DNA from: Lingula anatina | Lineage: Eukaryota > Animalia > Brachiopoda | Direction of reading: 5' to 3' | Length of the DNA: 64,000 nt | Assembly (NCBI GenBank): GCA_051362555.1 | Contig: CM120640.1 | Coordinates: 32,507,967 to 32,571,966 of the forward strand | In this document: positions 1 to 33,708 of the stretch, one piece after another | Position numbering within the stretch: position 1 is the stretch's first letter | Layout of the letters: every line of letters starts with the position of its first letter | Program-made: the position numbers and the translations under genes | Notes under the pieces: generated by a model | What the model saw: only the letters and a program-made list of their open reading frames with translations | Told to the model about the DNA's origin: nothing | The model's database searches: none

Positions 1-3000
1 AAAAATCAAATTTACTAACCTTAGCTTGGATCTAAGAGTGAAGTCCATGTCTGGGCGGGGTAGCTCATTATCTTTTTTGTCCTGTAAAAAAAAAATGAAA
101 AACAAGATAAGATTTTTTCAATTTACCCATCCCACCACACCCAAAAAATCAAATTTACTAACCTTAGCTTGAATCCAAGAGTGAAGTCCATGTCTGTGCG
201 GGGTCGTTCATCAACTTCTTTGTCCTGTAAAAAGAAATAAAAAAGAAGATTAGATTTTTTCAATTTACCCATAACAAAAAAATCAAATTTACTAACCTTA
301 GCTTGGATCTAAGAGTGAAGTCCATGTCTGGGCGGGGTAGCTCATTATCTTTTTTGTCCTGTAAAAAAAAAATGAAAAACAAGATAAGATTTTTTCAATT
401 TACCCATCCCACCACACCCAAAAAATCAAATTTACTAACCTTAGCTTGGATCCAAATGTGAAGTTCATGTCCAGGCAGGGTCACTTATCATCTTCTTTAT
501 CCTGTAAAAAGAAATAAAAACCAAAATTAGATTTTTTCAATTTACCCATCCCACCACACCAAAAAATTAAAATTTACTAACCTTAGCTTGGATCCAAGAG
601 TGAAGTCCATGGCCTTGCAAGTCGTTCATCATCTTCTTTGTCCTGTAAAAAGAAATGAAAAAGAAGATTAGATTTTTTCAATTTACGTATCCCAAAACCC
701 CAAAAAATCAAATTTACTAACCTTAGTTTGAATCCAAGAGTGAAGTCCATGTCCGGGCGGGGACGTTCATCATCTTCTTTGTCCTGTAAAAAGAAATAAA
801 AAACAAGATTAGATGTTTTCAATTTACCCATCCTACCAGCCCAAAAAAATAAAATTTACTAACCTTAACTTGGATCCAAGAGTTAAGTCCATGTCCAGGC
901 TGGGTCGTTCATCATCTTCTTTGTCCTGTAAAAAGAAATGAAAAACAAGATTAAGTTTTTTTCAATTTACCCATCCCACCATAACAAAAAAATCAAATTT
1001 ACTAACCTTAGCTTGGATCTAAAAGTGAAGTCCATGTCTGGGCGGGGTAGCTCATTATCTTCTTTGTCCTGTAAAAAAGAAATGAAAACATGATTAGATT
1101 TTTTCAATTTACTCAACCCACCACACCAAAAAATTAAAATTCACCAACCTTAGCTTGGATCCAAGAGTGAAGTCCATATCTGGGCGGGGTCGCTCATCAT
1201 CTTCTTTGTCCTGTAAAAAGAAATGAAAAACAAGATTAAGTTTTTTTCAATTTACCCATCCCACCATAACAAAAAAATCAAATTTACTAGCCTTAGCTTG
1301 GATCTAAGAGTGAAGTCCATGTCTGGGCGGGGTAGCTCATTATCTTCTTTGTCCTGTAAAAAAAAAATGAAAAACAAGATTAGATTTTTTCAATTTACCC
1401 ATCCCACCACACCAAAAAAATCAAATTTACTAACCTTAGCTTGGATCCAAGTGTGAAGTCCATATCTATGCGGGGTCGCTCATCATCTTCTTTATCCTGT
1501 AAAAAGAATTGAAAAAGAAGATTAGATTTTTTCAATTTACCTATCCCAAAACCCCCAAAAAATCAAATTTACTAACCTTAGCTTGGATCCAAGTGTGAAG
1601 TCCATATCTATGCGGGGTCGCTCATCATCTTCTTTATCCTGTAAAAAGAATTGAAAAAGAAGATTAGATTTTTTCAATTTACCTATCCCAAAACCACCAA
1701 AAAATTAAAATTTACCAACCTTAGCTTGGATCCAAGAGTGAAGTCCATATCTGGGCAGGGTCGCTCATCATCTTCTTTATCCTGTAAAAAAAAATGAAAA
1801 AGAAGATTAGATTTTTTCAATTTACCTATCCCAAAACCACCAAAAAATCAAATTTACTAACCTTAGCTTGGATCCAAGTGTGAAGTCCATATCTGGGCGG
1901 GGTCGCTCATCATCTTCTTTATCCTGTAAAAAGAAATGAAAAAGAAGATTAGATTTTTTCAATTTACCTATCCCAAAACCACCAAAAAATCAAATTTACT
2001 AACCTTAGCTTGGATCCAAGTGTGAAGTCCATGTCCAGGCTGTGTCGCTTATCATATTCTTTGTCAGTAAAAATAAATAAAAACAAGATTAGATGTTTTC
2101 AATGTACCCATCCCACCACACCAAAATAATCAAATTTACTAACCTTAGCTTGAATCCAAGAGTGAAGTCCATGTCTGTGCGGGGTCGTTCATCATCTTCT
2201 TTGTCCTGAAAAAAGAAATGAAAAAGAAGATTAGATTTTTTCAATTTACCTATTCCAAAACCCCCAAAAAATCAAATTTACTAACCTTAGCTTGGATCCA
2301 AGTGTGAAGTCCATGTCAGGGCGGGGTCGCTCATCATATTCTTTGTCTGTAAATAGAAATAAAAACAAGATTAGATTTTTCAATTTACCCATCCTAGCAT
2401 CCCAAAAAAATAAAATTTACTAACCTTAACTTGGATCCAAGAGTGAAGTCCATGTCAGGGCAGGGTCGTTCATCATCTTCTTTGTCCTGTAAAAAGAAAT
2501 AAAGAAGATTAGATTTTTTCAATTTACCTATCCCAAAACCACCAAAAAATCAAATTTACTAACCTTAGCTTGGATCCAAGTGTGAAGTCCATGTCCAGAC
2601 GGGGTCGCTTATCATATTCTTTGTCTGTAAAAATAAATAAAAACAAGATTAGATTTTTTCAATTTACCCATCCTAGCATCCCAAAAAAATCAAATTTACT
2701 AACCTTAGCTTGGATCCAAGTGTGAAGTCCATGTCCAGGCGGGGTTGCTTATCATATTCTTTGTCTGTAAAAATAAATAAAAACAAGATTAGATTTTTTC
2801 AATTTACCCATCCTAGCATCCCAAAAAAATCAAATTTACTAACCTTAACTTGGATCCAAGTGTGAAGTACATGTCAGGGCGGGGTCGTTCATCATCTTCT
2901 TTGTCCTGTAAAAAGAAATGAAAAAAAAAATTAGATTTTTTTCAATTTACCCATCCCACCACAACAAAAAAATCAAATTTACTAACATTTGCTTGGATCC

Positions 3001-6000
3001 AAGAGTGAATTCCATGTCCAGGCGGGGTCACTAATCATCTTCTATGTCCTGTAAAAAGAAATAAAAAACAAGATTAGATGTTTTCAATTTACCCATCCTA
3101 CCAGCCCAAAAAAATCTAATTTACTAACCTTAACTTGGATCCAAGAGTGAAGTCCATATCTGGGCGGGGTCGCTCATCATCTTCTTTGTCCTGTAAAAAA
3201 AAATGAAAAACAAGATTAGATTTTTTCAATTTACCCATCCCACCACACCAAAAAAATCAAATTTACTAACCTTAGCTTGAATCCAAGAGTGAAGTCCATG
3301 TCTGTGCGGGGTCGTTCATAATCTTCATTGTCCTGTAAAAAGAAATGAAAAAGAAGATTAGAATTTTTCAATTTACCTATCCCAAAACCCCCAAAAATTC
3401 AAATTTACTAACCTTAGCTTGGATCCAAGTGTGAAGTCCATATCTATGCGGGATCGCTCATCATCTTCTTTATCCTGTAAAAAGAATTGAAAAAGAAGAT
3501 TAGATTTTTTCAATTTACCTATCCCAAAACCACCAAAAAATTAAAATTTACCAACCTTAGACTGGATCCAAGAGTGAAGTCCATATCTGGGCAGGGTCGC
3601 TCATCATCTTCTTTATCCTGTAAAAAGAATTGAAAAAGAAGATTAGATTTTTTCAATTTACCTATCCCAAAACCACCAAAAAATCAAATTTACTAACCTT
3701 AGCTTGGATCCAAGTGTGAAGTCCATGTCCAAGCGGGGTCGCTTATCATATTCTTTGTCTGTAAAAATAAATAAAAACAAGATTAGATGTTTTCAATTTA
3801 CCCATCCCACCACACCAAAATAATCAAATTTACTAACCTTAGCTTGAATCCAAGAGTGAAGTCCATGTCTGTGCGGGGTCACTAATCATCTTCTATGTCC
3901 TGTAAAAAGAAATAAAAAACAAGATTAGATGTTTTCAATTTACCCATCCTACCAGCCCAAAAAAATCAAATTTACTAACCTTAACTTGGATCCAAGAGTG
4001 AAGTCCATGTCAGGGCAGGGTCGTTCATCATCTTCTTTCTCCTGTAAAAAGAAATGAAAAAGAAGATTAGATTTTTTCAATTTACCCATCCCACCACACC
4101 AAAAAAATCAAATTTACTAACCTTAGCTTGGATCCAAGAGTGAACTTCATGTCCAGGTGGGGTCACTCATAATCTTCTTTATCCTGTAAAAAGAAATAAA
4201 CACCAAGATTAGATTTTTTCAATTTACTCAACACACCACACCAAATAAATCAAATTTACTAACCTTAACTTGGATCCAATAGTGAAGTCCTTATCCAGGG
4301 GGGGTCGCTAATCATCTTCTATGTCCTGTAAAAAGAAACAAAAAACAAGATTCGATTTTTTCAATTCACCCATCCCACCACCCCCAAAAATTAAAATTTA
4401 CTAACCTTAGCTTGGATCCAAGAGTGAAGTCCATGTCCGGGCGAGGTCGCACATCACCTTCTTTGTCCTGTAAAAAGAAATGAAAAACAAGATTAGATTT
4501 TTTCAATTTACCCATCCTAGCATCCCAAAAAAATCAAATTTACTAACCTTAACTTGGATCCAAGAGTGAAGTCCACGTCCAGGCTGGATAGCTCATCATC
4601 TTCTTTGTCTGTAAAAAGAAATAAAAACAAAATAAGATTTTTTCAATTTAACCCATCCTAGCATCCCAGAAAAATGAAATTTACTAACCTTAGCTTGGAT
4701 CCAAGTCTGAAGTCCATGACCAGGCTGGATCCCTCATCATCTTCTTTGTCTGTAAAAAGAAATAAAAACCAAGATTAGATTTTTTCAATTTACCCATCCC
4801 GCCACCCCCAAAAATTAAAATTTACTAACCTTAGCTTGGATCCAAGAGTGAAGTCCATGTGCTGGCAGGGTCGTTCATCATCTTCTTTGTCCTGTAAAAA
4901 GAAATGAAAAACAAGATTAGATTTTTTCAATTAACCCATCCCACCACCCTAAAAAATTAAAATTTACTAACCTTAGCTTGGATCCAAGAGTGAAGTCCAT
5001 GTCTGGGCTGGGTCGCTCATCGTCTTCTTTGTCCTGTAAAAAGAATTGAAAAAACAAGATAAGATTTTTTCAATTTACCCATCCTAGCATCCCCAAAAAA
5101 TCAAATTTACTAACCTTAACTTGGATCCAAGACTAAAGTCCTTGTCCAGGTGGGGTCGCTCATCATATTCTTTGTCTGTAAAAAAAAATAAAAACAAGAT
5201 TAGATTTTTTCAATTTACCCATCCCAAAACCCCAAAAAATCAAATTTACTAACCTTAACTTGGATACATGAGTAAAGTCCATGTCTGTGCGGGGTCGTTC
5301 ATCATCTTCATTGTCCTGTAAAAAGAAATGAAAAAGAAAATTAGATTTTTTCAATTTACCTATCCCAAAACCCCCAAAAAATCAAATTTACTAACCTTAG
5401 CTTGGATCCAAGTGTGAAGTCCATATCTATGTGGGGTCGCTCATCATCTTCTTTATCCTGTAAAAAGAATTGAAAAAGAAGATTAGATTTTTTCAATTTA
5501 CCCATCCGAGCATCCCAAAAAAATCAAATTAACTAACCTTAACTTGGATCCAAGACTGAAGTCCATGACAAGGCTGGATCGCTCATCATCTTCTTTGTCT
5601 GTAAAAAGAAATAAAAACAAGATTAGATTTTTTCAATTTATCCATCCCACCACACCAAAAAATTAAAATTTACTAACCTTAGCTTGGATCCAAGAGTGAA
5701 GTCCATGTCCGGGCGAGGTCGCTCATCACCTTCTTTGTCCTGTAAAAAGAAATGAAAAACAAGATTAGATTTTTTCAATTTACCCATCCGAGCATCCCAA
5801 AAAAATCAAATTAACTAACCTTAACTTGGATCCAAGACTGAAGTCCATGACAAGGCTGGATCGCTCATCATCTTCTTTGTCTGTAAAAAGAAATAAAAAC
5901 AAGATTAGATTTTTTCAATTTATCCATCCCACCACACCAAAAAAATCAAATTTACTAACCTTAGCTTGAATCCAAGAGTGAAGTCCATGTCTGTGCGGGG

Positions 6001-9000
6001 TCGTTCATCATCTTCATTGTCCTGTAAAAAGAAATGAAAAAGAAGATTAGATTTTTTCAATTTACCTATCCCAAAACCCCCAAAAAATCAAATTTACTAA
6101 CCTTAGCTTGGATCCAAGTGTGAAGTCCATATCTATGCGGGGTCGCTCATCATCTTCTTTATCCTGTAAAAAGAATTGAAAAAGAAGATTAGATTTTTTC
6201 AATTTACCTATCCCAAAACAACCAAAAAATTAAAATTTACCAACCTTAGCTTGGATCCAAGAGTGAAGTCCATATCTGGGCGGGGTCGCTCATCATCTTC
6301 TTTATCCTGTAAAAAGAAATGAAAAAGAAGATTAGATTTTTTCAATTTACCTATCCCAAAACCCCCAAAAATTCAAATTTACTAACCTTAGCTTGGATCC
6401 AAGTGTGAAGTCAATGTCCGGGCGGGGTCGCTCATCATATTCTTTGTCTGTAAATAGAAATAAAAACAAGATTAGATTTTTCAATTTACCCATCCTAGCA
6501 TCCCAAAAAAATAAAATTTACTAACCTTAACTTGGATCCAAGAGTGAAGTCCATGTCAGGGCAGGGTCGTTCATCATCTTCTTTGTCCTGTAAAAAGAAA
6601 TGAAAAAGAAAATTAGATTTTTTCAATTTACCTATCCCAAAACCACAAAAAAATCAAATTTACTAACCTTAGCTTGGATCCAAGTGTGAAGTCCATGTCC
6701 AGGCGGGGTCGCTTATCATATTCTTTGTCTGTAAAAATTAATAAAAACAAGATTAGATTTTTTCAATTTACCCATCCTAGCATCCCAAAAAAATCAAATT
6801 TACTAACCTTAGCTTGGATCCAAGTGTGAAGTCCATGTCCAGGCGGGGTTGCTTATCATATTCTTTGTCTGTAAAAATAAATAAAAACAAGATTAGATTT
6901 TTTCAATTTACCCATCCTAGCATCCCAAAAAAATCAAATTTACTAACCTTAACTTGGATCTAAGAGTGAAGTACATGTCAGGGCGGGGTCGTTCATCATC
7001 TTCTTTGTTCTGTAAAAAGAAATGAAAAAAAAATTAGATTTTTTCAATTTACCCATCCCACCACAACAAAAAAATCAAATTTACTAACCTTAGCTTGGAT
7101 CCAAGAGTGAACTTCATGTCCAGGTGGGGTCACTCATAATCTTCTTTATCCTGTAAAAAGAAATAAACACCAAGATTAGATTTTTTCAATTTACTCAACC
7201 CACCACACCAAATAAATCAAATTTACTAACCTTAACTTGGATCCAAGAGTGAAGTCCTTATCCAGGGGGGGTCGCTAATCATCTTTTATGTCCTGTAAAA
7301 AGAAACAAAAAACAAGATTAGATTTTTTCAATTCACCCATCCCACCACCCCCAAAAATTAAAATTTACTAACCTTAGCTTGGATCCAAGAGTGAAGTCCA
7401 TGTCCGGGCGAGGTCGCACATCACCTTCTTTGTCCTGTAAAAAGAAATGAAAAACAAGATTAGATTTTTTCAATTTACCCATCCTAGCATCCCAAAAAAA
7501 TCAAATTTACTAACCTTAACTTGGATCCAAGAGTGAAGTCCACGTCCAGGCTGGATAGCTCATCATCTTCTTTGTCTGTAAAAAGAAATAAAAACAAAAT
7601 AAGATTTTTTCAATTTAACCCATCCTAGCATCCCAAAAAAATCAAATTTACTAACCTTAGCTTGGATCCAAGAGTGAAGTCCTTGTCCAGGCGGGGTCAC
7701 TTATCATCTTCTTTATCCTATAAAAAGAAATAAAAACCAAGATAAGATTTTTTCAATTTACCCATCCCGCCACCCCCAAAAATTAAAATTTACTAACCTT
7801 AGCTTGGATCCAAGAGTGAAGTCCATGTCTGGGCTGGGTCGCTCATCGTCTTCTTTGTCCTGTAAAAAGAATTGAAAAAACAAGATAAGATTTTTTCAAT
7901 TTACCCATCCTAGCATCCCCAAAAAATCAAATTTACTAACCTTAACTTGGATCCAAGACTAAAGTCCTTGTCCAGGTGGGGTCGCTCATCATATTCTTTG
8001 TCTGTAAAAAAAAATAAAAACAAGATTAGATTTTTTCAATTTACCCATCCCGCCACCCCCAAAAATTAAAATTTACTAACCTTAGCTTGGATCCAAGAGT
8101 GAAGTCCATGTCTGGGCTGGGTCGCTCATCGTCTTCTTTGTCCTGTAAAAAGAATTGAAAAAACAAGATAAGATTTTTTCAATTTACCCATCCTAGCATC
8201 CCCAAAAAATCAAATTTACTAACCTTAACTTGGATCCAAGACTAAAGTCCTTGTCCAGGTGGGGTCGCTCATCATATTCTTTGTCTGTAAAAAAAAATAA
8301 AAACAAGATTAGATTTTTTCAATTTACCCATCCCAAAACCCCAAAAAATCAAATTTACTAACCTTAACTTGGATACATGAGTAAAGTCCATGTCCGGGCT
8401 AGGTCGCTCATCACCTTCTTTGTCCTGTAAAAAGAAATGAAAAACAAGATTAGATTTTTTCAATTTACCCATCCGAGCATCCCAAAAAAATCAAATTAAC
8501 TAACCTTAACTTGGATCCAAGACTGAAGTCCATGACAAGGCTGGATCGCTCATCATCTTCTTTGTCTGTAAAAAGAAATAAAAACAAGATTAGATTTTTT
8601 CAATTTATCCATCCCACCACACCAAAAAAATCAAATTTACTAACCTTAGCTTGAATCCAAGAGTGAAGTCCATGTCTGTGCGGGGTCGTTCATCATCTTC
8701 ATTGTCCTGTAAAAAGAAATGAAAAAGAAGATTAGATTTTTTCAATTTACCTATCCCAAAACCCCCAAAAAATCAAATTTACTAACCTTAGCTTGGATCC
8801 AAGTGTGAAGTCCATATCTATGCGGGGTCGCTCATCATCTTCTTTATCCTGTAAAAAGAATTGAAAAAGAAGATTAGATTTTTTCAATTTACCTATCCCA
8901 AAACCACCAAAAAATTAAAATTTACCAACCTTAGCTTGGATCCAAGAGTGAAGTCCATATCTGGGCAGGGTCGCTCATCATCTTCTTTATCCTGTAAAAA

Positions 9001-12000
9001 AAAATGAAAAAGAAGATTAGATTTTTTCAATTTACCTATCCCAAAACCACCAAAAAATCAAATTTACTAACCTTAGCTTGGATCCAAGTGTGAAGTCCAT
9101 ATCTGGGCGGGGTCGCTCATCATCTTCTTTATCCTGTAAAAAGAAATAAAAAACAAGATTAGATGTTTTCAATTTACCCATCCTACCAGCCCAAAAAAAT
9201 CAAATTTACTAACCTTAACTTGGATCCAAGAGTGAAGTCCATGTCAGGGCAGGGTCGTTCATCATCTTCTTTCTCCTGTAAAAAGAAATGAAAAAGAAGA
9301 TTAGATTTTTTCAATTTACCCATCCCACCACACCAAAAAAATCAAATTTACTAACCTTAGCTTGGATCCAAGAGTGAACTTCATGTCCAGGTGGGGTCAC
9401 TCATAATCTTCTTTATCCTGTAAAAAGAAATAAACACCAAGATTAGATTTTTTCAATTTACTCAACACACCACACCAAATAAATCAAATTTACTAACCTT
9501 AACATGGATCCAATAGTGAAGTCCTTATCCAGGGGGGGTCGCTAATCATCTTCTATGTCCTGTAAAAAGAAACAAAAAACAAGATTAGATTTTTTCATTT
9601 CACCCATCCCACCACCCCCAAAAATTAAAATTTACTAACCTTAGCTTGGATCCAAGAGTGAAGTCCATGTCCGGGCGAGGTCGCACATCACCTTCTTTGT
9701 CCTGTAAAAAGAAATGAAAAACAAGATTAGATTTTTTCAATTTACCCATCCTAGCATCCCAAAAAAATCAAATTTACTAACCTTAACTTGGATCCAAGAG
9801 TGAAGTCCACGTCCAGGCTGGATAGCTCATCATCTTCTTTGTCTGTAAAAAGAAATAAAAACAAAATAAGATTTTTTCAATTTAACCCATCCTAGCATCC
9901 CAGAAAAATGAAATTTACTAACCTTAGCTTGGATCCAAGTCTGAAGTCCATGACCAGGCTGGATCCCTCATCATCTTCTTTGTCTGTAAAAAGAAATAAA
10001 AACCAAGATTAGATTTTTTCAATTTACCCATCCCGCCACCCCCAAAAATTAAAATTTACTAACCTTAGCTTGGATCCAAGAGTGAAGTCCATGTACTGGG
10101 CTGGGTCGCTCATCGTCTTCTTTGTCCTGTAAAAAGAATTGAAAAAACAAGATAAGATTTTTTCAATTTACCCATCCTAGCATCCCCAAAAAATCAAATT
10201 TACTAACCTTAACTTGGATCCAAGACTAAAGTCCTTGTCCAGGTGGGGTCGCTCATCATATTCTTTGTCTGTAAAAAAAAATAAAAACAAGATTAGATTT
10301 TTTCAATTTACCCATCCCAAAACCCCAAAAAATCAAATTTACTAACCTTAACTTGGATACATGAGTAAAGTCCTTGTCCAGGTGGGGTCGTTCATCATCT
10401 TCATTGTCCTGTAAAAAGAAATGAAAAAGAAAATTAGATTTTTTCAATTTACCTATCCCAAAACCCCCAAAAAATCAAATTTACTAACCTTAGCTTGGAT
10501 CCAAGTGTGAAGTCCATATCTATGCGGGGTCGCTCATCATCTTCTTTATCCTGTAAAAAGAATTGAAAAAGAAGATTAGATTTTTTCAATTTACCCATCC
10601 GAGCATCCCAAAAAAATCAAATTAACTAACCTTAACTTGGATCCAAGACTGAAGTCCATGACAAGGCTGGATCGCTCATCATCTTCTTTGTCTGTAAAAA
10701 GAAATAAAAACAAGATTAGATTTTTTCAATTTATCCATCCCACCACACCAAAAAATTAAAATTTACTAACCTTAGCTTGGATCCAAGAGTGAAGTCCATG
10801 TCCGGGCGAGGTCGCTCATCACCTTCTTTGTCCTGTAAAAAGAAATGAAAAACAAGATTAGATTTTTTCAATTTACTCATCCGAGCATCCCAAAAAAATC
10901 AAATTAACTAACCTTAACTTGGATCCAAGACTGAAGTCCATGACAAGGCTGGATCGCTCATCATCTTCTTTGTCTGTAAAAAGAAATAAAAACAAGATTA
11001 GATTTTTTCAATTTATCCATCCCACCACACCAAAAAAATCAAATTTACTAACCTTAGCTTGAATCCAAGAGTGAAGTCCATGTCTGTGCGGGGTCGTTCA
11101 TCATCTTCATTGTCCTGTAAAAAGAAATGAAAAAGAAGATTAGATTTTTTCAATTTACCTATCCCAAAACCCCCAAAAAATCAAATTTACTAACCTTAGC
11201 TTGGATCCAAGTGTGAAGTCCATATCTATGCGGGGTCGCTCATCATCTTCTTTATCCTGTAAAAAGAAATGAAAAAGAAGATTAGATTTTTTCAATTTAC
11301 CTCTCCCAAAACCACCAAAAAATCAAATTTACTAACCTTAGCTTGGATCCAAGTGTGAAGTCCATGTCCAAGCGGGGTCGCTTATCATATTCTTTGTCTG
11401 TAAAAATAAATAAAAACAAGATTAGATGTTTTCAATTTACCCATCCCACCACACCAAAATAATCAAATTTACTAACCTTAGCTTGAATCCAAGAGTGAAG
11501 TCCATGTCTGTGCGGGGTCGTTCATCATCTTCTTTGTCCTGAAAAAAGAAATGAAAAAGAAGATTAGATTTTTTCAATTTACCTATCCCAAAACCCCCCA
11601 AAAATCAAATTTACTAACCTTAGCTTGGATCCAAGTGTGAAGTCAATGTCCGAGCGGGGTCGCTCATCATATTCTTTGTCTGTAAATAGAAATAAAAACA
11701 AAATTAGATTTTTCAATTTACCCATCCTAGCATCCCAAAAAAATAAAATTTACTAACCTTAACTTGGATCCAAGAGTGAAGTCCATGTCAGGGCAGGGTC
11801 GTTCATCATCTTCTTTGTCCTGTAAAAAGAAATGAAAAAGAAAATTAGATTTTTTCAATTTACCTATCCCAAAACCACAAAAAAATCAAATTTACTAACC
11901 TTAGCTTGGATCCAAGTGTGAAGTCCATGTCCAGGCGGGGTCGCTTATCATATTCTTTGTCTGTAAAAATTAATAAAAACAAGATTAGATTTTTTCAATT

Positions 12001-15000
12001 TACCCATCCTAGCATCCCAAAAAAATCAAATTTACTAACCTTAGCTTGGATCCAAGTGTGAAGTCCATGTCCAGGCGGGGTTGCTTATCATATTCTTTGT
12101 CTGTAAAAATAAATAAAAACAAGATTAGATTTTTTCAATTTACCCATCCTAGCATCCCAAAAAAATCAAATTTACTAACCTTAACTTGGATCTAAGAGTG
12201 AAGTACATGTCAGGGCGGGGTCGTTCATCATCTTCTTTGTTCTGTAAAAAGAAATGAAAAAAAAAATTAGATTTTTTCAATTTACCCATCCCACCACAAC
12301 AAAAAAATCAAATTTACTAACCTTAGCTTGGATCCAAGAGTGAACTTCATGTCCAGGTGGGGTCACTCATAATCTTCTTTATCCTGTAAAAAGAAATAAA
12401 CACCAAGATTAGATTTTTTCAATTTACTCAACCCACCACACCAAATAAATCAAATTTACTAACCTTAACTTGGATCCAATAGTGAAGTCCTTATCCAGGG
12501 GGGGTCGCTAATCATCTTTTATGTCCTGTAAAAAGAAACAAAAAACAAGATTAGATTTTTTCAATTCACCCATCCCACCACCCCCAAAAATTAAAATTTA
12601 CTAACCTTAGCTTGGATCCAAGAGTGAAGTCCATGTCCGGGCGAGGTCGCACATCACCTTCTTTGTCCTGTAAAAAGAAATGAAAAACAAGATTAGATTT
12701 TTTCAATTTACCCATCCTAGCATCCCAAAAAAATCAAATTTACTAACCTTAACTTGGTTCCAAGAGTGAAGTCCACTTCCAGGCTGGATAGCTCATCATC
12801 TTCTTTGTCTGTAAAAAGAAATAAAAACAAAATAAGATTTTTTCAATTTAACCCATCCTAGCATCCCAAAAAAATCAAATTTACTAACCTTAGCTTGGAT
12901 CCAAGAGTGAAGTCCTTGTCCAGGCGGGGGGTCACTTATCATCTTCTTTATCCTATAAAAAGAAATAAAAACCAAGATTAGATTTTTTCAATTTACCCAT
13001 CCCGCCACCCCCAAAAATTAAAATTTACTAACCTTAGCTTGGATCCAAGAGTGAAGTCCATGTCTGGGCTGGGTCGCTCATCGTCTTCTTTGTCCTGTAA
13101 AAAGAATTGAAAAAACAAGATAAGATTTTTTCAATTTACCCATCCTAGCATCCCCAAAAAATCAAATTTACTAACCTTAACTTGGATCCAAGACTAAAGT
13201 CCTTGTCCAGGTGGGGTCGCTCATCATATTCTTTGTCTGTAAAAAAAAATAAAAACAAGATTAGATTTTTTCAATTTACCCATCCCAAAACCCCAAAAAA
13301 TCAAATTTACTAACCTTAACTTGGATACATGAGTAAAGTCCATGTCCGGGCTAGGTCGCTCATCACCTTCTTTGTCCTGTAAAAAGAAATGAAAAACAAG
13401 ATTAGATTTTTTCAATTTACCCATCCGAGCATCCCAAAAAAATCAAATTAACTAACCTTAACTTGGATCCAAGACTGAAGTCCATGACAAGGCTGGATCG
13501 CTCATCATCTTCTTTGTCTGTAAAAAGAAATAAAAACAAGATTAGATTTTTTCAATTTATCCATCCCACCACACCAAAAAAATCAAATTTACTAACCTTA
13601 GCTTGAATCCAAGAGTGAAGTCCATGTCTGTGCGGGGTCGTTCATCATCTTCATTGTCCTGTAAAAAGAAATGAAAAAGAAGATTAGATTTTTTCAATTT
13701 ACCTATCCCAAAACCCCCAAAAAATCAAATTTACTAACCTTAGCTTGGATCCAAGTGTGAAGTCCATATCTATGCGGGGTCGCTCATCATCTTCTTTATC
13801 CTGTAAAAAGAATTGAAAAAGAAGATTAGATTTTTTCAATTTACCTATCCCAAAACCACCAAAAAATTAAAATTTACCAACCTTAGCTTGGACCAAGAGT
13901 GAAGTCCATATCTGGGCGGGGTCGCTCATCATCTTCTTTATCCTGTAAAAAGAAATGAAAAAGAAGATTAGATTTTTTCAATTTACCTCTCCCAAAACCA
14001 CCAAAAAATCAAATTTACTAACCTTAGCTTTGATCCAAGTGTGAAGTCCATGTCCAAGCGGGGTCGCTTATCATATTCTTTGTCTGTAAAAATAAATAAA
14101 AACAAGATTAGATGTTTTCAATTTACCCATCCCACCACACCAAAATAATCAAATTTACTAACCTTAGCTTGAATCCAAGAGTGAAGTCCATGTCTGTGCG
14201 GGGTCGTTCATCATCTTCTTTGTCCTGAAAAAAGAAATGAAAAAGAAGATTAGATTTTTTCAATTTACCTATCCCAAAACCCCCCAAAAATCAAATTTAC
14301 TAACCTTAGCTTGGATCCAAGTGTGAAGTCAATGTCCGGGCGGGGTCGCTCATCATATACTTTGTCTGTAAATAGAAATAAAAACAAGATTAGATTTTTC
14401 AATTTACCCATCCTAGCATCCCAAAAAAATAAAATTTACTAACCTTAACTTGGATCCAAGAGTGAAGTCCATGTCAGGGCAGGGTCGTTCATCATCTTCT
14501 TTGTCCTGTAAAAAGAAATGAAAAAGAAGATTAGATTTTTTCAATTTACCTATCCCAAAACCACAAAAAAATCAAATTTACTAACCTTAGCTTGGATCCA
14601 AGTGTGAAGTCAATGTCCGGGCGGGGTCGCTCATCATATTCTTTGTCTGTAAATAGAAATAAAAACAAGATTAGATTTTTCAATTTACCCATCCTAGCAT
14701 CCCAAAAAAATAAAATTTACTAACCTTAGCTTGGATCCAAGTGTGAAGTCCATGTCCAGGCGGGGTCGCTTATCATATTCTTTGTCTGTAAAAATTAATA
14801 AAAACAAGATTAGATTTTTTCAATTTACCCATCCTAGCATCCCAAAAAAATCAAATTTACTAACCTTAGCTTGGATCCAAGTGTGAAGTCCATGTCCAGG
14901 CGGGGTTGCTTATCATATTCTTTGTCTGTAAAAATAAATAAAAACAAGATTAGATTTTTTCAATTTACCCATCCTAGCATCCCAAAAAAATCAAATTTAC

Positions 15001-18000
15001 TAACCTTAACTTGGATCTAAGAGTGAAGTACATGTCAGGGCGGGGTCGTTCATCATCTTCTTTGTTCTGTAAAAAGAAATGAAAAAAAAAATTAGATTTT
15101 TTCAATTTACCCATCCCACCACAACAAAAAAATTAAATTTACTAACCTTAACTTGGATCTAAGAGTGAAGTACATGTCAGGGCGGGGTCGTTCATCATCT
15201 TCTTTGTTCTGTAAAAAGAAATGAAAAAAAAAATTAGATTTTTTCAATTTACCCATCCCACCACAACAAAAAAATCAAATTTACTAACCTTAGCTTGGAT
15301 CCAAGAGTGAATTCCATGTCCAGGCGGGGTCACTTATCATCTTCTATGTCCTGTAAAAAGAAATAAAAAACAAGATTAGATGTTTTCAATTTACCCATCC
15401 TACCAGCCCAAAAAAATCAAATTTACTAACCTTAACTAGGATCCAAGAGTGAAGTCCATGTCCGGGCGGGGTCGTTCATCATCTTCTTTTTCCTGTAAAA
15501 AGAAATGAAAAAGAAGATTAGATTTTTTCAATTTACCCATCCCACCACACCAAAAAAATCAAATTTACTAACCTTAGCTTGGATCCAAGAGTGAACTTCA
15601 TGTCCAGGTGGGGTCACTCATAATCTTCTTTATCCTGTAAAAAGAAATAAAAACCAAGATTAGATTTTTTCAATTTACTCAACCCACCACACCAAATAAA
15701 TCAAATTTACTAACCTTAACTTGGATCCAATAGTGAAGTCCTTATCCAGGGGGGGTCGCTAATCATCTTCTATGTCCTGTAAAAAGAAACAAAAAACAAG
15801 ATTAGATTTTTTCAATTCACCCATCCCACCACCCCCAAAAATTAAAATTTACTAACCTTAGCTTGGATCCAAGAGTGAAGTACATGTCCGGGCGAGGTCG
15901 CTCATCACCTTCTTTGTCCTGTAAAAAGAAATGAAAAACAAGATTAGATTTTTTCAATTTACCCATCCTAGCATCCCAAAAAAATCAAATTTACTAACCT
16001 TAACTTGGATCCAAGAGTGAAGTCCACGTCCAGGCTGGATAGCTCATCATCTTCTTTGTCTGTAAAAAGAAATAAAAACAAAATAAGATTTTTTCAATTT
16101 AACCCATCCTAGCATCCCAGAAAAATGAAATTTACTAACCTTAGCTTGGATCCAAGTCTGAAGTCCATGACCAGGCTGGATCCCTCATCATCTTCTTTGT
16201 CTGTAAAAAGAAATAAAAACCAAGATAAGATTTTTTCAATTTACTCAACCCACCACACCAATTAAATCAAATTTACTAACCTTAACTTGGATCCAAGAGT
16301 GAAGTCCATGTCTGGGCGGGGTCGTTCATCATCTTCTTTCTCCTGTAAAAAGAAATGAAAAAGAAGATTAGATTTTTTCAATTTACCCATCCCACCACAC
16401 CAAAAAAATCAAATTTACTAACCTTAACTTGGATCCAAGAGTGAAGTCCTTGTTCAGGCGGGGTCACTTATCATCTTCTTTATCCTATAAAAAGAAATAA
16501 AAACCAAGATTAGATTTTTTTTAATTTACCCATCCCGCCACCCCCAAAAATTAAAATTTACTAACCTTAGCTTGGATCCAAGAGTGAAGTCCATGTGCTG
16601 GCGGGGTCGTTCATCATCTTCTTTGTCCTGTAAAAAGAAATGAAAAACAAGATAAGATTTTTTCAATTAACCCATCCCACCACCCCAAAAAATTAAAATT
16701 TACTAACCTTAGCTTGGATCCAAGACTGAAGTCCTTGTCCAGGTGGGGTCGCTCATCATATTCTTTGTCTGTAAAAAAAAATAAAAACAAGATTAGATTT
16801 TTTCAATTTACCCATCCCAAAACCCCAAAAAATCAAATTTACTAACCTTAGCTTGGATCCAAGAGTAAAGTCCATGTCCGGGCGAGGTCGCTCATCATCT
16901 TCTTTGTCCTGTAAAAAGAAATGAAAAACAAGATTAGATGTTTTCAATTTACCCATCCTACCAGCCCAAAAAAATCAAATTTACTAACCTTAACTTGGAT
17001 CCAAGAGTGAAGTCCATGTCCAGGCTGGGTTGTTCATCATCTTCTTTGTCCTGTAAAAAGAAATAAAAACAAGATTAGATTTTTTCGATTTACCCATCCC
17101 AAACCCCAAAAAATCAAATTTACTAACCTTAGCTTGGATACATGAGTGAAGTCCATGTCCGGGCGAGGTCGCTCATCTTCTTCTTTGTCCTGTAAAAAGA
17201 AATGAAAAACAAGATTAGATTTTTTCAATGTACCCATCCAAAAAAAACAAAAAAATGAAATGTACTAACCTTAGCTTGGATCCAAGTGTGAAGTCCATGT
17301 CCAGGCGGGGTTGCTCATCATATTCTTTGTCTGTAGAAAGAAATAAAAACAAGATTAGATTTTTTCAATTTATCCATCCCAACTCACCAAAAAAATCAAA
17401 TTTACTAACCTTAGCTTGGATCCAAGTGTGAAGTTCATGTCCAGGCAGGGTCACTTATCATCTTCTTTATCCTGTAAAAAGAAATAAAAACCAAGATTAG
17501 ATTTTTTCAATTTACACATCCCACCACCCCCAAAAATTAAAATTTACTAACCTTAGCTTGGATACAAGAGTGAAGTCCATGGCCGTGCGGGGTTGTTCAT
17601 CATCTTCTTTGTCCTGTAAAAAGAAATGAAAAAGAAGATTAGATTTTTTCAATTAATCCATCCCACCACCCCAAAAAATTAAAATTTACCAACCTTAGCT
17701 TGGATCCAAGAGCGAAGTCCATGTCTGGGCTGGGTCGCTCATCGTCTTCTTTGTCCTGTAAAAAGAATTGAAAAAACAAGATAAGATTTTTTCAATTTAC
17801 CCATCCTAGCATCCCCAAAAAATCAAATTTACTAACCTTAACTTGGATCCAAGACTGAAGTCCTTGTCCAGGTGGGGTCGCTCATCATATTCTTTGTCTG
17901 TAAAAAAAAATAAAAACAAGATTAGATTTTTTCAATTAACCCATCCCAACACCCCAAAAAAATCAAATTTACCAACCTTAGCTTGGATCCAAGAGTGAAG

Positions 18001-18700
18001 TCTATATCTGGGCGGGGTCGCTCATCATCTTCTTTGTCCTGTAAAAAGAAATGAAAAACAAAATTAAATTTTTTCAATTTACCCATCCCACCACACCAAA
18101 AAAATCAAATTTACTAACCTTAGCTTGAATCCAAGAGTGAAGTCCATGTCCGGGCGGGGACGTTCATCATCTTCTTTGTCCTGTAAAAAGAAATGAAAAA
18201 CAAGATGAGATGTTTTCAATTTACCCATCCTACCAGCCCAAAAAAATAAAATTTACTAACCTTAACTTGGATCCAAGAGTGAAGTCCATGTCAGGGCGGG
18301 GTCGTTCATTATCTTCTTTGTCTTGTAAAAAGAAATGAAAAAGAAGATAAGATTTTTTCAATTTCCCATCCCACCACCCCAAAAAAATCAAATTTACCAA
18401 CCTTAGCTTGGATCTAATGTGTGAAGTCCATATTCGGGCGGGGTCGCTCATCATCTTCTTTGTCCTGTAAAAAGAAATGAAAAACAAGATTGGATTTTTT
18501 CAATTTACCCATCCCACCACAACAAAAAAATCAAATTTACTAACCTTAGCTTGGATCCAAGAGTGAAGTCCATGTCTGGGCGGGGTAGCTCATCATCTTC
18601 TATGTCCTGTAAAAAGAAATGACAAACAAGATTAGATTTTTTCAATTAACACATCCCACCACCCAAAAATAAAATAATAAATAAATAAAATTTACTAATC
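1..18700. repeat. Tandem satellite-like array, ~141-142 bp monomer, about 130 copies, open at the left window edge
   Basis: Recurring unit AAATCAAATTTACTAACCTTAGCTTGGATCCAAGAGTGAAGTCCATGTCYGGGCGGGGTCGCTCATCATCTTCTTTGTCCTGTAAAAAGAAATGAAAAACAAGATTAGATTTTTTCAATTTACCCATCCCACCACACCAAAA. Most copies carry a BamHI site inside the 12-bp palindrome CTTGGATCCAAG. A degenerate final unit runs to ~18790. Confidence 0.98.
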
Positions 18701-18789
18701 TTGAATTCTTGATACGGAAACTAGTCAATGTCTGTATTTTGTCGATCAGGAGATTAGATTTTTTTCAATTTACAACCCCCCCCCCTTCC

Positions 18790-20069
18790 AAAAAAAAACT
18801 ATATAATTTCCAGAACGTTTAACCAATAAGACAGGTTTTTCAACTGAAGGTATGTTTAAGTCCTATGCTACTTTTCTTTGTTTGAGTTCTTAAAGTTGGA
18901 GATGTGAAAGTAAGATGGTTTTCCTTTAATGGTCACTGTGGAGGCAGTGCCAAAACAGGGATGTCTTCAGTTTTGATGCAATATTACATAATGCTTAACA
19001 GAATAATGACCATCAAGTTTTAATAACAAAATAAAAGTATAATGGACATTTAACAAATGTGACATGGAAAGGTCTTCAAGGTCATGGAAGTTCAGAGTCA
19101 CACCCTCAAAATACCGAAATACAAACGAGAGATAACTGTACTGAAACGATTTTCTTTCCAATTTCAACACCTTTTTTTACATAAAACAAAATGAGCAATT
19201 TACTGTCATTTTGAAATGATCAACTAAGAAAATTGTTGACATAGGAAAAATATCAATAGAACAATTTCAAATGTCCTATTTGCTCCATTCTGAGATTCTG
19301 AACATAGTGAATGATTGAATCTGACAAACTGTAAAGAAACTTTATTACACAATACACAATAACAGGTTTACCATCATTTTTATATAATCAACTAACAATC
19401 TTGTTAAGATGCAGAAAATGTCAAAAGAACACCTTTACATATCTAATTGGTTAAAAAAATGAGACTGTTAACATGCTAAAGATTTAAATCTGAGGAAAAA
19501 ACACTTATATACAAAAACAAGGCATAACTTCAACAAAACCTAACCAATCAAGCTTATTTCCGAACTAAATCTGTATTTCAGTAAGACTGATCACTCCTGT
19601 GAATTTCCAGACAATTGGCCAATTGATTTTCCTTGAAATGTGTTATCGGTGGTGCATATATGGTGAAAAAAGTTTTTAAAAAAGAATAGCTTTTATATAA
19701 ATGGCCTGTTCATGCCAATTTTCTAACTTGACCTGTGTACTATGAATATTCAACAGTTCTGTAAGTTTCAATCCAAATGTAAAAATGGTTTTCCACATAT
19801 CGTGTTATCGGTGTTGCATATATGTTGGAAAAAAGTGAAAAAAGCAGTATAACTTTTATAAAAATGACCCGATCATGCTGATTTTCAAACTTGACCTGCG
19901 TATTATGAATGTTCATCAGTTCTGTATGTTTCAAGCCAAAAGGTAAAAAGGTTTTCCACTTATAGTGTTATCGGTGAAAGTGCACGGCAACGACAGCGAC
20001 GACGGAGACGACAGACGCAGGTGAAGGGTAGGCCTATATGTACAGACGAATGTGTCTGAACATAAAAAC
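18790..20069 (+). mobile_element. Non-autonomous Helentron/HINE-like element, family X, 3' portion abutting the satellite
   Basis: Collinear similarity to ~40300-41410 and ~43270-44150. Internal ~150 bp repeats, GACGACAGACG microsatellite, terminal hairpin TATGTACAGAC...GTCTGAACATA followed by an A run. Confidence 0.7.
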
Positions 20070-20319
20070 AATACACAAAAGGGAAAAACACTCACTCACA
20101 TTTGAGAGAAAATGCACATCAGCCTTAGAAGAGAAACACGACAACCAAACAAGCGTGACCTAAATAGGACATATGAAGGTTTTGTTCTAGCCTCGAAGGG
20201 CATTCAACTTTCAAGAACGACCTAGAAACATGGGCGTAAGAGGAATATGACAGAAATGAAAAGAGAGTATGACAAGGTGGCACTAACCCATCTCCAGTAG
20301 CTTGGATTTCAATCCATTT

Positions 20320-20830
20320 TCGATTAATTTTTCTGCGGCGGTTATTCGAGGTCCGAGCTAAGAGCTGAGTGTTATTTGTACATGTACATTTCCCAGAGCG
20401 AAGAGTTCGCACGGATTGAAGGGTCGAATTCACAGAAGCACACCATGGAGAAAATACGAAGCATTCGTTGTTTTGTACTAGTAAAGAAACTATCCTCAGG
20501 TGCGATGCATTGGCGTTGGATCACATGAAATTTGAAGGCGGTTGCCCGAAGAAAATCGCTCTCACTTCGCGTCCTATGTACTCCTCTGGAGTGAAACGCA
20601 ACATGTCTATCCCGCTTCACAATTGCCCGCTCTTAGACTTCCAATCTCAGATTGTTGGCTGGGGGCGTTGCTGTCGTCAGCATCCTGTCAGTTTGAACGA
20701 GGGGGTGTCGTATGAGAATGAAACCCAAATTTTATTATTGCATTGTGTATACACCTACGTTTGAAATGCATTCAGCGTTTTCATACCTAAACTCTTTTGT
20801 TTAAACAGAAAAAAAACGCGCATTAACCTC
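20320..20830. promoter_or_regulatory. CpG-enriched putative promoter/first-exon region not assignable to any coding gene in the window
   Basis: Visible rise in CpG and GC against the flanks; CCAAT/ATTGG at ~20509 and 20641; lies directly upstream of minus-strand splice donors at 20287 and 20099. Confidence 0.45.
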
Positions 20831-23800
20831 GGAGGGAAGAATTAATGTACGGCTGTAATAGTTTTTGGAGGGAAACCACGCATGCCTCTCCCCCAATTAT
20901 TATTGACAGTGTCTTTGCATCTTGTTGACATGATATCAACCTGAAGTTTATAAACCTGCCCAAGGCCATCATTGGACGACCTTGTCCGCTTACACTGGAA
21001 CACTTATTCACAATATACACTGATCCACAATGCACTTTGAAGAAACTTTCATTTCATTTCTTGTTTCACAGATGATGATAATAAAGATAAAGTGATAATA
21101 CTTTTTTGCTATAAATATTTATGTGGAGTTGTCAAGTTTTTTGGTAGCATTAATTTTCCAAGGAGAAAGGATAACGAAAGGATAATAAGCTTGGTGTGAT
21201 TTAATGTTTTAGTTACTTTTTACATTTGCTTAAATATTTTAACTACTTCTTATATTTGCTTGAAAGAAGATGGCATGCAGGGCTCCATAGTCCCCCTTTT
21301 CACTGTTTAGAACTGGCATGGTTTAAAAAAACTTTCGTGTGTGCGTGTGTGTGTGTGGGGGGGGGGGGGGGGGGGGGGAGGGAGTTACCTCCCTCAGCTC
21401 CTGTGATCTTTTATGTTCTTTAATTACCAAAATTAACAGGTCTGTAGACGGAAAGGGGGGGGGGGGCGAACCCCAGAAGAAGTTTGTTTGGTTGTTTGCT
21501 CAGGGCAGCATATGACCTACGTACACGGAGGTTTCATGGTAAGAGGTCAACTTTTAGGGGAAAAAAAACGTCATGTTTTGATAATCTACATCTACTACAA
21601 TTAACCAAATGGTCTTTTATTTAAAAAAAGATTAACAAAAAGCATACAACCATATAATGAAGAGGACATAATCAGACTGGGTCTCTAATAACTAAAATGA
21701 AAAAGTATACTTTTAGCTGAAGATGGAGTTAAACAATCTGCCTCAACGGGTTCTGGGGTTGGGGTGAGAAGTAAATATTGTCATTTACACGAAAACAGCC
21801 CTCTCTCCGTCTCTCTCTCTATATAGATACATATGACCTTTTATGTAGATAGATAATATAGAATCCTTAATTGTGTTTGGACTTTGCTGAGGACTTTTAT
21901 TAAGACGACTGCCAGAATGTTTAAAGCACAATTCTCTGATGCTGTCATGTTTTTCTGTGAACAGAGTGTGATAAAAATATTATCGAGACAAGAAACACTG
22001 TTGGTAAATATTGCACATTTTTTTATTTTGACTAGCACATTAGTGGCATTAATGTGTATACAGTACAAGATATCAGATTGTCAGATGTGCAAGCAAATGG
22101 CTTGGTGAAGTAAACAGTACACCTCTTATACAAGACTGTTAACATAATAATTGCTACCAGGCAAGTTAACAATGCAAAATGTTACTTAAATGTATTCAAA
22201 ACATGCTACAAAACTTAAAAATACTATGCAAAATAATGTTACCAAAGTGAACAAATAATGATAAATACATAACAAAAATATGCACTATATCTTTCGGATA
22301 AACATTTTTACAGATTGCTTCTCCATTATCTCAGTGCTTCAGACAGTCTGTACGGACCTGCATGATACCAGCAGATATTTTACTGTCACTGCATGTGCCA
22401 ATGATATGTGCCCCCATCAAACCACGCATGAGACTTTCACATAGTAAAGTATTATTTGCCTGGAAATTTCAACACCCTTCTTCACCAAGGCAGACCATAT
22501 CCCCAACTGGCCATAGAATTCAGGTTTAGTAACACTAGGTTGCATGTTTCTAGTTTTTGAGTCTTCAGGTAATGAAAATGCAGACTGGTCATTTGTCACT
22601 TTTGACAGTAAAAGTTTGAAATTTTAAAGTCGAAAAGAAGTTCATAAATTGTAATTTTTTCAATGGCTATGGATAGTGTATACCTTGGTAGACTAAAAGT
22701 GCTGAAATTTCCCCAAAATAATCTTTTTCCCCTTGTATATAAAGGTCTAATTGGCACTGTACGCCTTAAACTGGGTTGAACCCAATACTGATTTTCTCAA
22801 ACTAACTGCCTCTCCAACATCTGGCATTCGGCTATATAAATACAAACTTACATTAACATGTTGCCTATCAAATGAAATTAATTTGCAAATTCCAATTACT
22901 TTTTTTCTCCACAAAATACAGATTTGATCTCTGCAAAACCTTCTGCAGTACATTTTGTGTCATTATAGTTACAAACCAGCATATAAAGTTTTTTAATTTT
23001 TGCCATCTTGATCTTAGTCAACAAGAAAAAATAAACAAGTGCAAAAACAAATAATATACAAAATATAAACTCACCTTCCTTTGAAAAAAAATTTAAATAA
23101 AGATGTCCAAATATGCAACAAATGATTACATGAAACACTTCAAACACAATTGACACTAAAATGTAAGATATAAGATTTTTAATAGTCTTACTATCTTCAT
23201 CAACAAATTGGTTAATAGTATGCTGTGAAATCACACAACATTGAATCAAGTGTATTTTACTCTACTACATGTCAGCACATTCTATGCAAGGGAGATACAT
23301 GCTTGAAGAAAAATGGAAATCGTGAGCAGTAGTATTTAGGTTAATAGCAAAAAGGTTTAACCTTTATTGGTCTGTGTTGTATTTAACCATGTTTATTGTG
23401 TAGTAATGATCAGGTCATAAATTTCTAATGTTATGTCATCAGTTAAACCTTAAATCTTCTGTCAACGATTTCTTTTATATAACATTATCCTAACAGCCAT
23501 ACTTTTATGTTGGCAATAATTTAATACTTACATTTTTAATACAATCAAATATTCATTATGACAACAGAGTTAAATATTACTTATAATGCTTATAATATCC
23601 AATAAAAAGTACTGAGCACCTATAATGTCATGTTGTAACAGATTTGCTTCAAATCTCTGATCAGTTTTTCAAAATAAGTCTCAATGCATGCTAAAATGCT
23701 GTGGTAAGAAGTGTATTTAATGGAATCTCTTCAAAAGGACAACAATTACCCTTAGTTGTCTTTCATTGGTAATTTTGATCCATTTCATAAAACCCCATCA

Positions 23801-23840
23801 AGGCTTAATCACTGTGATGTGGTGATTCAAGTTTCCATTC

Positions 23841-25052
23841 TCACAATCTGGTGTTGCTGCTTTGTTCAGCAACATTGGATGCTTGGTCCTCTGTGACAGG
23901 ATTTGGGTCAATCTGTAAAATGAACGGATCCCAACAGTGGTTATAACTTGAACAGCAACCAAACCGAAAAAAAAAGAGAGAAAATGTTGGCGACAATTAA
24001 AGCCTTAGAAGTTGTTAGTGCATATAAGCCTTTTTAAACAAGGGATAAACAGCACAAGGAACAGTTAAACAGACCACAGCCAGAGGTTGAAAAGTAGTGA
24101 GGAAAACGTCCATTATCACTACATCCCTGACCCTGAACTGGTATCTTATCTCTGATCCTCAAATGTGCACTCAATAAGTATTGAGAAGTTCTGAAAATTT
24201 TTTAAAGCCCTTAAAATCACTGACTCTAAAATTACTGAATTAAAAATATATCCATGCAGCACAAAAGCAACCTCTTGTGAGAAGAATTTATCACGGTCTG
24301 ATATGAAAAAATGACTTAAATTCACAGAGTGAAAACTGGTACATAACCAATGGTGCCTCTCTTAACTGTCATAAAAATTATACAAATTGCCATAGTCACC
24401 TCAGAGTAGGCTGGTGGTGGTCTGTATCTGTACCCATAGACATATGTATACATAGGTGTGTATGTCCAGTCCCCCATGTTGACCCCTCTATTGTCATCGT
24501 CATCTTCATCTCTGATGTCCACTGCACCGCTGTATGTCTCGGCATATGTAGGTGGAGCTGAATATAACACCCAGAATATCAGCTATGGAAAACCATTTCA
24601 TTATTGTGCATTTCTAAATGTGAAATCATTTAAATTTAAAGGTATCCTATCCAATATCTTCCTGCCAAATTGCATTTTTCTAATATAAGAAAAAAGTCAT
24701 TTACTCAGACTCATGAATCATTGCTCAACCAATTTCTGGACTGGGATCCTGATAGAATAACTCAAAAGTTATGATCTGATTTCAGTTTTACATTCAGCAT
24801 TTTTAAAAACATTTTATTTTCCATAAAATGATGAAATCTGCTGAATAGCTTTAACCAATTTCTCCCTTTTTATACTCAAAAAAATTAATGATAAATATCA
24901 ATTTTAGACACTGTAAAAACTAAAAATTCTGAAAATGTAGCCTGCAAATTTTCATCGCATTTAGACTATATGAAAAAAAAAAGATCAAAATGAAGACTGA
25001 ATATCCTGAAATCAGGCATAATCCTGAAAACATTTACCTATGGATTTAGATA

Positions 25053-25095
<43 letters not shown>

Positions 25096-32949: not shown

Positions 32950-33504
32950 AGGACCAAATAGCTTTATAATCTTTTTTTTTTTTTTAACTTCAAGTAAAAA
33001 TTAATGGGTCCATAAGATACAATTACCAAAATACCTATTTTGTCATTCAGTTTCATGTTTTGTGATGGTATGCCCTAATTTTGTTTGTCCATTGAGTGCT
33101 GAACTAGTTGGAAAGACTAGTTGGAGAATAAGTTAATACAAGTGCAGAAGAATCTTGCAATGAGCAGACTGTCAAATAATTACTTTCAAGAAAACGTTTT
33201 TTGAATTTACAGTAATAAAAATATACAAATGTGATATTGCATTGATGCCTGTGTGTACAGGGGGGAATCAGCCTTTTGTTCAATTAATGGATGCAATAAC
33301 AAGAATAAACAACTTTTGAACATAACTTGTTTTGTTCTATAGTGCATGTATGTCAAAAACCAAAAAGGTCACAAAATAAAAGGAAATGCATGAACTCTGT
33401 CAATAACTTGAAGAGACCCAGATTTATGTATTGTCCAGCAAACAAATTGCCTCCCACCTCCTGAGGTACATGCATTATGCCCGAATAACAGCATGCAGGT
33501 GTGG

Positions 33505-33708
33505 CAATCCTACAAATCACTTCATTCAATTGTAGATATCTCCAACATAAAAAACAATTTCCAAGGTTTCACGTACAAATCTCCTTCCATTCAACTGCAG
33601 ATATCTCCAACCTCTAAAAACAGTTTCCAAGGTTTCACCTACAAATCTATTTCCATTCAATTATAAATATCTCCAACCTCCAAAAACAATTTCCAAGGTT
33701 TCACCCTC
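33505..33708. repeat. Three-copy ~65-66 bp tandem repeat spanning the PTCD2-like stop codon
   Basis: CATTCAAYTRYARATATCTCCAAC...AAAAACARTTTCCAAGGTTTCAC at ~33523, ~33588 and ~33654. Confidence 0.9.

Follow-up and report, generated by a model that had tools for sequence, protein, structure and literature searches.

A Lingula anatina satellite built of exon-plus-intron units, related copies of which are spliced to each other in RNA

Introduction

Can the monomer of a satellite be a complete exon together with its intron, and are such units handled as exons once they are transcribed? The question is raised by a 64,000-nucleotide stretch of the genome of the brachiopod Lingula anatina (contig CM120640.1 of assembly GCA_051362555.1, positions 32,507,967 to 32,571,966), hereafter the window, with positions counted from its first nucleotide. 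Its left end is occupied by a long tandem array, which a first-pass annotation, made from the nucleotide sequence and its open reading frames, had described as a satellite of about 130 splice-competent mini-exons on the minus strand. Two readings had been put forward: a non-coding RNA built from more than 130 repeated exons, loosely like the long non-coding RNA FIRRE, or a large field of decoy exons. Here we show that sense polyadenylated (poly(A)) RNA of the species contains exons of this repeat family spliced one to another.

Results

A satellite of exon-plus-intron units

Tandem Repeats Finder reported a single array in the window, at 1-18669, with a period of 142, 132.0 copies and 87% matches. 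Cutting at the donor yielded 132 full units, 139-144 nt long except for one of 134 and one of 155, together with a partial unit at 1-19; the array extends past the left end of the window, which makes 132 a lower bound. On the minus strand, the donor reads GTTAGT in 122 of the 132 units, GTTGGT in nine and GCTAGT in one (that is, GT in 131 and GC in 1), and the acceptor is YAG in 130, AAG in one and lost in one. A branch-like YTRAY motif stands 16-44 nt ahead of the intron end in 113 units (at 25-26 nt in 109). Exons measure 62 nt in 87 units, 61 nt in 41, 63 nt in two, 64 nt in one and 55 nt in one, and introns 80 nt in 77 of 131 (range 72-85). The anatomy claimed in the first-pass annotation is confirmed, down to its example of an exon at 81-20 and an intron at 162-82, both of which are exact. 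In the consensus unit all three signals lie on the minus strand; the plus strand has none of them. Among 5000 dinucleotide shuffles, one had donor and acceptor on one strand and none had all three signals, a chance estimate that is generous because the criteria were fixed after the monomer had been seen. Each unit also holds a 12-bp palindrome in the exon (consensus positions 126-137); within the intron (consensus positions 10-56), a short inverted repeat includes the branch-like motif.

The array is satellite DNA: it covers at least 18.7 kb, its tandem units are homogenised and it turns over in blocks. Distinct units number 95 of 132, and identical ones are spaced 35-37 and 17-21 units apart. 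Recurrence at a distance of 17-37 units is more readily explained by block duplication than by an assembly artefact. The mean pairwise difference is 13.5% in the exon and 12.0% in the intron. CpG transitions are elevated in the array (P 0.006), as expected for methylated DNA; in invertebrates, DNA methylation marks gene bodies.

Splicing of repeat exons in sense RNA

Five of the nine raw-read runs of the species were mapped (X1, X2, X3, X4 and X7), of which X1-X3 belong to one study and X7, unstranded, to another. Broad mapping covered 18464-24463 with X1, X2, X4 and X7, and single-unit mapping covered 18464-18785, with one exon, using X1, X2, X3 and X7. Reads over the 3' region of a minus-strand arrestin gene in the window are first-mate plus in X1, X2 and X4, so first-mate plus was taken to denote minus-strand RNA. 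Expression of the repeat family is very low: a single unit drew 67, 50, 53 and 19 reads in X1, X2, X3 and X7, from 11-12 million records each, and the mean depth of minus-strand RNA over the repeat unit is 18.9 in X1, 11.4 in X2 and 1.1 in X4.

The junction between consecutive exons, predicted to be missing from the genomic array, has no occurrence in the window on either strand. Three of the four runs of the single-unit mapping contain it in sense poly(A) RNA, precisely at the predicted splice sites. The joint leads from 18605 to 18544, 62 nt back, which places an exact exon end onto an exon start, and is carried by one read in X1, two in X2 and five in X3 (with 1, 2 and 3 start places) and by none in X7; all of these reads are sense and none is antisense. 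Further reads leave the donor with loose ends that read into the start of another exon (eight in X1, five in X3 and four, of mixed kind, in X2). On the acceptor side, 11 X1 reads join to the repeat exon an exon end related to the degenerate exon at the edge of the array (5 differences in 30 nt), four X1 reads join a 62-nt exon that differs at its 3' end, and two X3 reads join a shorter exon of about 50 nt, the body of which occurs in all four runs. Single-exon circles were rejected as a source of the joints, since unlike exon types are joined within one read. The sense depth ratio across the donor is 0.45, 0.44 and 0.50 in X1, X2 and X3, whereas antisense depth stays at 8 to 8 in X2 and X3 (Fisher P 0.012, counts halved for mates). 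The intron is kept in about half of the sense reads, and antisense reads are unspliced. Neither a lack of junction reads nor exclusively unspliced RNA was thus encountered, and a pure decoy field, ignored in splicing, is unsupported because the exons are joined to each other.

Several minor features of these reads stand beside the joints. Unspliced antisense reads over 18464-18660 reach a depth of about 8 in X2 and X3, with none in X1; together with sense repeat RNA they could form double-stranded RNA. Two diverged intron types are retained upstream of the exon, at 18607-18640, one in 21 reads from four runs and the other in 30 reads from three, and one of them resembles the intron remnant beyond the edge of the array (Table 1). 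Four X2 reads join the donor at 18545 to an AT-rich sequence absent from the window, a candidate unique downstream exon.

A non-coding product with apparently conserved splice nucleotides

Joined end to end, the 132 exons add up to 8140 nt, in which 161-170 stops interrupt each frame and the longest ATG frame spans 70 codons; the spliced product is non-coding, in agreement with the first-pass annotation. A 16-codon mini-frame within each exon (frame 1) was set aside, its synonymous share of 0.239 against 0.229 indicating no constraint. Neither structure nor cargo was found: none of the seven sequences folded (three introns, three exons and one unit) rose above its shuffles (z -0.28 to 0.77; 0.42-0.77 for the introns), and an Rfam scan of 15000-21500 gave no match at E 1. 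Metagenome scans for the genomic donor motif and the junction motif returned 0 and 0, a result that is uninformative for an animal repeat.

The splice nucleotides, by contrast with matched sites, look conserved. In an alignment of 131 units, the edge unit excluded, the eight splice-critical sites required 6 parsimony steps versus 21.8 at base-matched sites (P 0.0035), and 5 versus 14.4 steps (P 0.024) once the ambiguous acceptor G was dropped and a stricter background, freed of CpG and a variable G/T stretch, was used. Of the 34 consensus G positions, just two, donor +1 and donor +5, are without any change. This pattern is suggestive only, because the repeats recombine and the edge unit is not part of the alignment.

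Upstream edge and likely leader

The features of the array and of the DNA upstream of it are collected in Table 1. The CpG-richest kilobase of the window (20001-21000) contains the likely first exon, over which minus-strand RNA has a mean depth of 5.3 in X1 and 16.3 in X2, with none in X4 (0). Donors lie at 20287 and 20099 within the CpG-rich region, and bin depths at the possible second leader exon are 1.9/3.4 in X1 and 6.1/2.3 in X2. The likely first exon would connect to the array. A motif at about 20380-20395, within the CpG-rich stretch, resembles the ZNF143/Ronin promoter element and is a candidate for one. The family of the interspersed repeat that separates the array from the likely promoter has internal tandem units of 335-338 bp and 163 bp; its reads reach a depth of 1500 in RNA and are mostly from one strand in X1, X2 and X4.

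Table 1. Positions of the array, its reference exons and introns, and the features upstream of it in the window
Feature	Positions	Strand	Basis or remark
Array, 132 full exon-plus-intron units	20..18699	-	Cut at donor
Last full repeat exon in window	20..81	-	Unit cut
Repeat intron of 81 nt with donor, branch-like motif, pyrimidine tract and acceptor	18464..18544	-	
First intact repeat exon, 62 nt; reference for junction reads	18545..18606	-	Unit cut and RNA reads
Degenerate edge exon (unit 0)	18700..18747	-	Donor AT instead of GT, acceptor part missing; upper boundary approximate
Repeat-intron remnant (model positions 16-60), upstream of unit 0	18749..18795	-	nhmmer E 0.0007
Interspersed repeat between array and likely promoter	18786..20068	.	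72-80% alike to copies at ~39100-41400 and 42760-44100
Possible second leader exon	20100..20221	-	AG before, GTGAGT after; predicted from sequence
Likely first exon	20288..20660	-	Ends at GTTAGT donor; upper boundary approximate

Discussion

Origin of the array and of its transcripts

The explanation that we favour, and to which we give an even chance, is that a weakly expressed non-coding gene contained a number of small, related exons and that one of its exon-plus-intron modules was amplified by unequal exchange into a satellite. Its first step is observed, namely the anatomy of the unit, splicing at the predicted sites in related copies and the lack of a long reading frame. We infer that this very array is transcribed, from a start in the CpG-rich stretch at about 20.3-20.7 kb and on the minus strand, via diverged edge exons into the repeat. 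Because whole modules would be duplicated, every new copy would have working splice sites from birth, and the gene would tolerate any copy number; its RNAs would form a mixture of low abundance, poor in exons and rich in retained introns. More tentatively, mild selection may keep the splice nucleotides while the exon drifts as fast as the intron, which would mean that being spliced, if anything, matters and that exon sequence does not. The copy number as such probably follows from repeat turnover as a by-product.

A series of observations weighs against this explanation. The junctions are confined to three runs of one study; X7 has no joints and a flat depth at the donor (7 versus 6.7), X4 has almost no reads, and no leader-to-array joint was found among the joints listed (15 of 100) for 18464-24463. 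The RNA comes from individuals other than that of the sequenced genome, and its alleles do not match the array: alleles at consensus positions 103, 127, 129 and 133 that occur in 0 of 131 units are carried by 20-39 of 75-85 sense reads, and an A at position 106, found in 14 of 131 units, is carried by 74 of 86 reads. A 16-nt motif of the short (~50 nt) exon type has 0 matches in the window. This array itself may therefore be silent. An intronless copy with a 62-nt period elsewhere in the genome may be the source of the joints. The tree behind the conservation test is one of recombining repeats, and the sites for it were chosen after the alignment had been viewed. Finally, a lean of the common exon alleles towards synonymous differences in frame 0 hints at a coding origin: 6 of 10 at alleles shared by at least 20 units (P 0.016) and, at looser thresholds, 9 of 21 (P 0.043) and 10 of 39 (at least 5 units, P 0.46), with three frames and four thresholds tried.

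The mismatch between RNA and array lends itself to a different account, in which the 132-unit array is an untranscribed derivative of a small multi-exon gene and the spliced reads come from a paralog with a handful of diverged exons. We judge this unlikely, albeit a serious candidate. The alleles and exon types of the RNA that are absent from the window speak for it, as does the edge exon found here, with its AT donor, no acceptor and an interspersed repeat directly upstream; just 5 of the 189 mapped reads are at least 99% alike to the edge unit used. The same animals, however, differ from the window in unique DNA too, at clustered near-fixed sites (6 in 22491-22529 and four in 20412-20477), and a diverged allele of this locus would explain much of the discrepancy. 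The order from edge exon to repeat exon is, moreover, equal in RNA and window, the splice sites of the array are better preserved than matched sites, and leader and array alike are covered more deeply in X1 and X2 than in X4 and X7. Since unique DNA also differs, both a diverged allele and a paralog are possible sources, and by their sequence the junction reads are attributed to one or the other. The differences at 22491-22529 (6 sites in 39 nt) and 20412-20477 are common to RNA from three studies; such clusters would reflect either a very high level of polymorphism or a cryptic lineage within what is labelled as one species.

The satellite could also be a gene: the CpG-rich promoter would drive the array, most of the at least 130 cargo-free 80-nt introns would be spliced in an unsampled tissue or stage, and selection would act on the splice sites and not on the exon sequence. 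We consider this doubtful. If true, function would reside in the act or marks of splicing, tunable by copy number, and the RNA would bear spliceosomes or junction complexes every 62 nt or act as a splicing sink.

A functional giant RNA that holds most of the at least 130 exons in one molecule of at least 8 kb, as a multivalent scaffold like the repeat of FIRRE, strikes us as a similarly poor prospect. The sense junction reads, the retention of both splice sites in nearly all units and the conservation of these sites are in its favour, and of the first-pass proposal the use of the sites and the non-coding nature of the product stand. The single RNA of more than 130 exons is unsupported, given the foreign alleles and exon types, the retained introns and the low exon depth: the repeat exon is 6-11 times (X1) and 1.2-1.9 times (X2) as deep as the likely first exon, not about 130 times, a ratio that assumes one transcript and few reads lost when mapping at 80%. 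If there is one transcript, this suggests few repeat exons per molecule rather than 130, or a much shorter array in these animals. Conservation of the exon is no higher than that of the intron, and none of the seven sequences folds better than its shuffles.

Could the unit instead have begun as a protein-coding exon? It would have been amplified as a whole-exon 'mirage' or as a module like that of SmPoMuc, and would now be mostly frame-breaking, with exon-exon joins as by-products that nonsense-mediated decay clears, and with the remainder of the gene to the left of the window. Frame 0 of the consensus exon is open, giving an DKEDDERPRPDMDFTLGSKL-like peptide, and it is the frame in which common alleles lean synonymous. 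Measured from a shared anchor, the edge-type exon end in the RNA exceeds the 62-nt type by one base and could belong to a 63-nt in-frame exon, and precedents are available (PMC2576457, PMC3087553). Distinct alleles are nevertheless unconstrained, with a synonymous share in frame 0 of 0.194 versus 0.239 expected and no synonymous excess in any frame, and none of the exon lengths (62, 61 and about 50 nt) is a multiple of three. An alternative donor 4 nt downstream, which would make a 66-nt exon, was rejected: with it, no more than 69 of 132 exons would stay in frame without a stop (longest open stretch 253 codons), and the observed joints use the first donor. The exon peptide has no Pfam match, the unspliced 90-residue frame has no homolog at E 10 among 94 candidates (a weak test), and the RNA neighbours of repeat exons are mostly other repeat exons. 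A coding origin or host is thus, in our estimate, improbable.

Least credible by far is a small-RNA host or spliced-leader array, in which each intron gives a mirtron or small nucleolar RNA (snoRNA) or each unit is a spliced-leader gene: mammalian repeated exon-intron units do carry snoRNAs and microRNAs (miRNAs; PMC3413130, PMC7692494), one nematode satellite is a spliced-leader gene (PMC9673304) and here the donor is followed by a U-rich stretch and the intron contains a short inverted repeat, but Rfam and intron folding gave nothing, and a spliced leader should be abundant, joined to many mRNAs and free of an upstream acceptor, whereas the repeat exon is seen in 19-67 reads per run, has used upstream acceptors and is followed mostly by another repeat exon.

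Comparison with known repeat-exon systems

Some of the nearest architectural relatives are mammalian. The SNORD115/SNORD116 arrays, rat Bsr/RBII-36 and C19MC yield non-coding transcripts from tandem spliced exons and introns (PMC3413130, PMC7692494) and, like the locus described here, combine tandem exon-plus-intron units, repeated exons that are spliced and no long frame, with the qualification that splicing was seen here in diverged copies. Each intron of the mammalian hosts carries a snoRNA or miRNA, whereas the 142-bp unit of this invertebrate has an 80-nt intron without detected cargo.

Among invertebrates, SmPoMuc of Schistosoma mansoni likewise has a small exon and an intron in tandem, with homogenised introns and a variable number of repeats in its transcripts; its exon is 27 nt long and in-frame coding, in a unit of about 1 kb with at most 20 copies (PMC2576457). 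The exon in Lingula differs in being 61-62 nt long (128 of 132), frame-breaking and part of a 142-bp unit in at least 132 copies, with no coding constraint in distinct alleles. The 'mirage' minisatellites of amphioxus share with it a tandem repeat made from the splice signals of a gene, a similar unit (150-160 bp in globins), concerted evolution and diverged edge units, and their arrays differ in length between haplotypes. Their unit spans one exon-intron boundary, is present in 3-6 copies and is reported to be harmless to normal splicing (PMC3087553), unlike the present one, which holds a whole exon with both sites, numbers more than 130 copies and belongs to a family whose exons are joined to each other.

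The likeness to FIRRE drawn in the first-pass annotation is retained as a loose one. In both, a spliced non-coding RNA has many exons formed by one repeat, and for the RRD of FIRRE a role in nuclear retention has been demonstrated. The RRD copies are, however, dispersed local repeats that are not adjacent to each other and supply 7 of 13 human and 11 of 23 mouse exons (PMC4820808), whereas the units here are head to tail.

Searches of an open-access collection that omits most subscription papers listed no non-coding invertebrate satellite with an exon-plus-intron monomer. What is new is the combination of a tiny, cargo-free unit with satellite-scale copy number, the architecture as such being familiar from mammalian snoRNA/miRNA host arrays and coding SmPoMuc. 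The locus brings together satellite birth and exon duplication, which are usually treated apart, in a satellite caught in the act, with a working exon-plus-intron module as its monomer and RNA evidence for splicing of the module; even as a low-level by-product it would give one satellite a clear story of origin. More than 130 near-identical mini-exons with natural splice-site variants also offer a test bed for exon choice, for retention of 80-nt introns and for selection on splice sites without selection on exon sequence.

Neighbouring genes

Further exon-like open frames, at 33657-33965, 41673-42035, 58088-58483 and 61589-61876, would belong to additional genes; the pieces scanned gave no Pfam match. 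The plus-strand gene at about 30213-32950 reads like one for cyclophilin B, its scanned piece being without a Pfam match. It stands head to head with the minus-strand arrestin-domain gene at 23860-29792, the start codons lying about 420 bp apart. The C-terminal piece of the arrestin-domain protein had no match at E 1e-20 among 232 candidates; its Arrestin_N domain was recognised by Pfam (E 5.8e-13), and the first coding exon of the gene shares 71-75% identity with the best named proteins (39 matches), which come from an annelid, a nemertean and molluscs. The G+C content of the window is about 34%.

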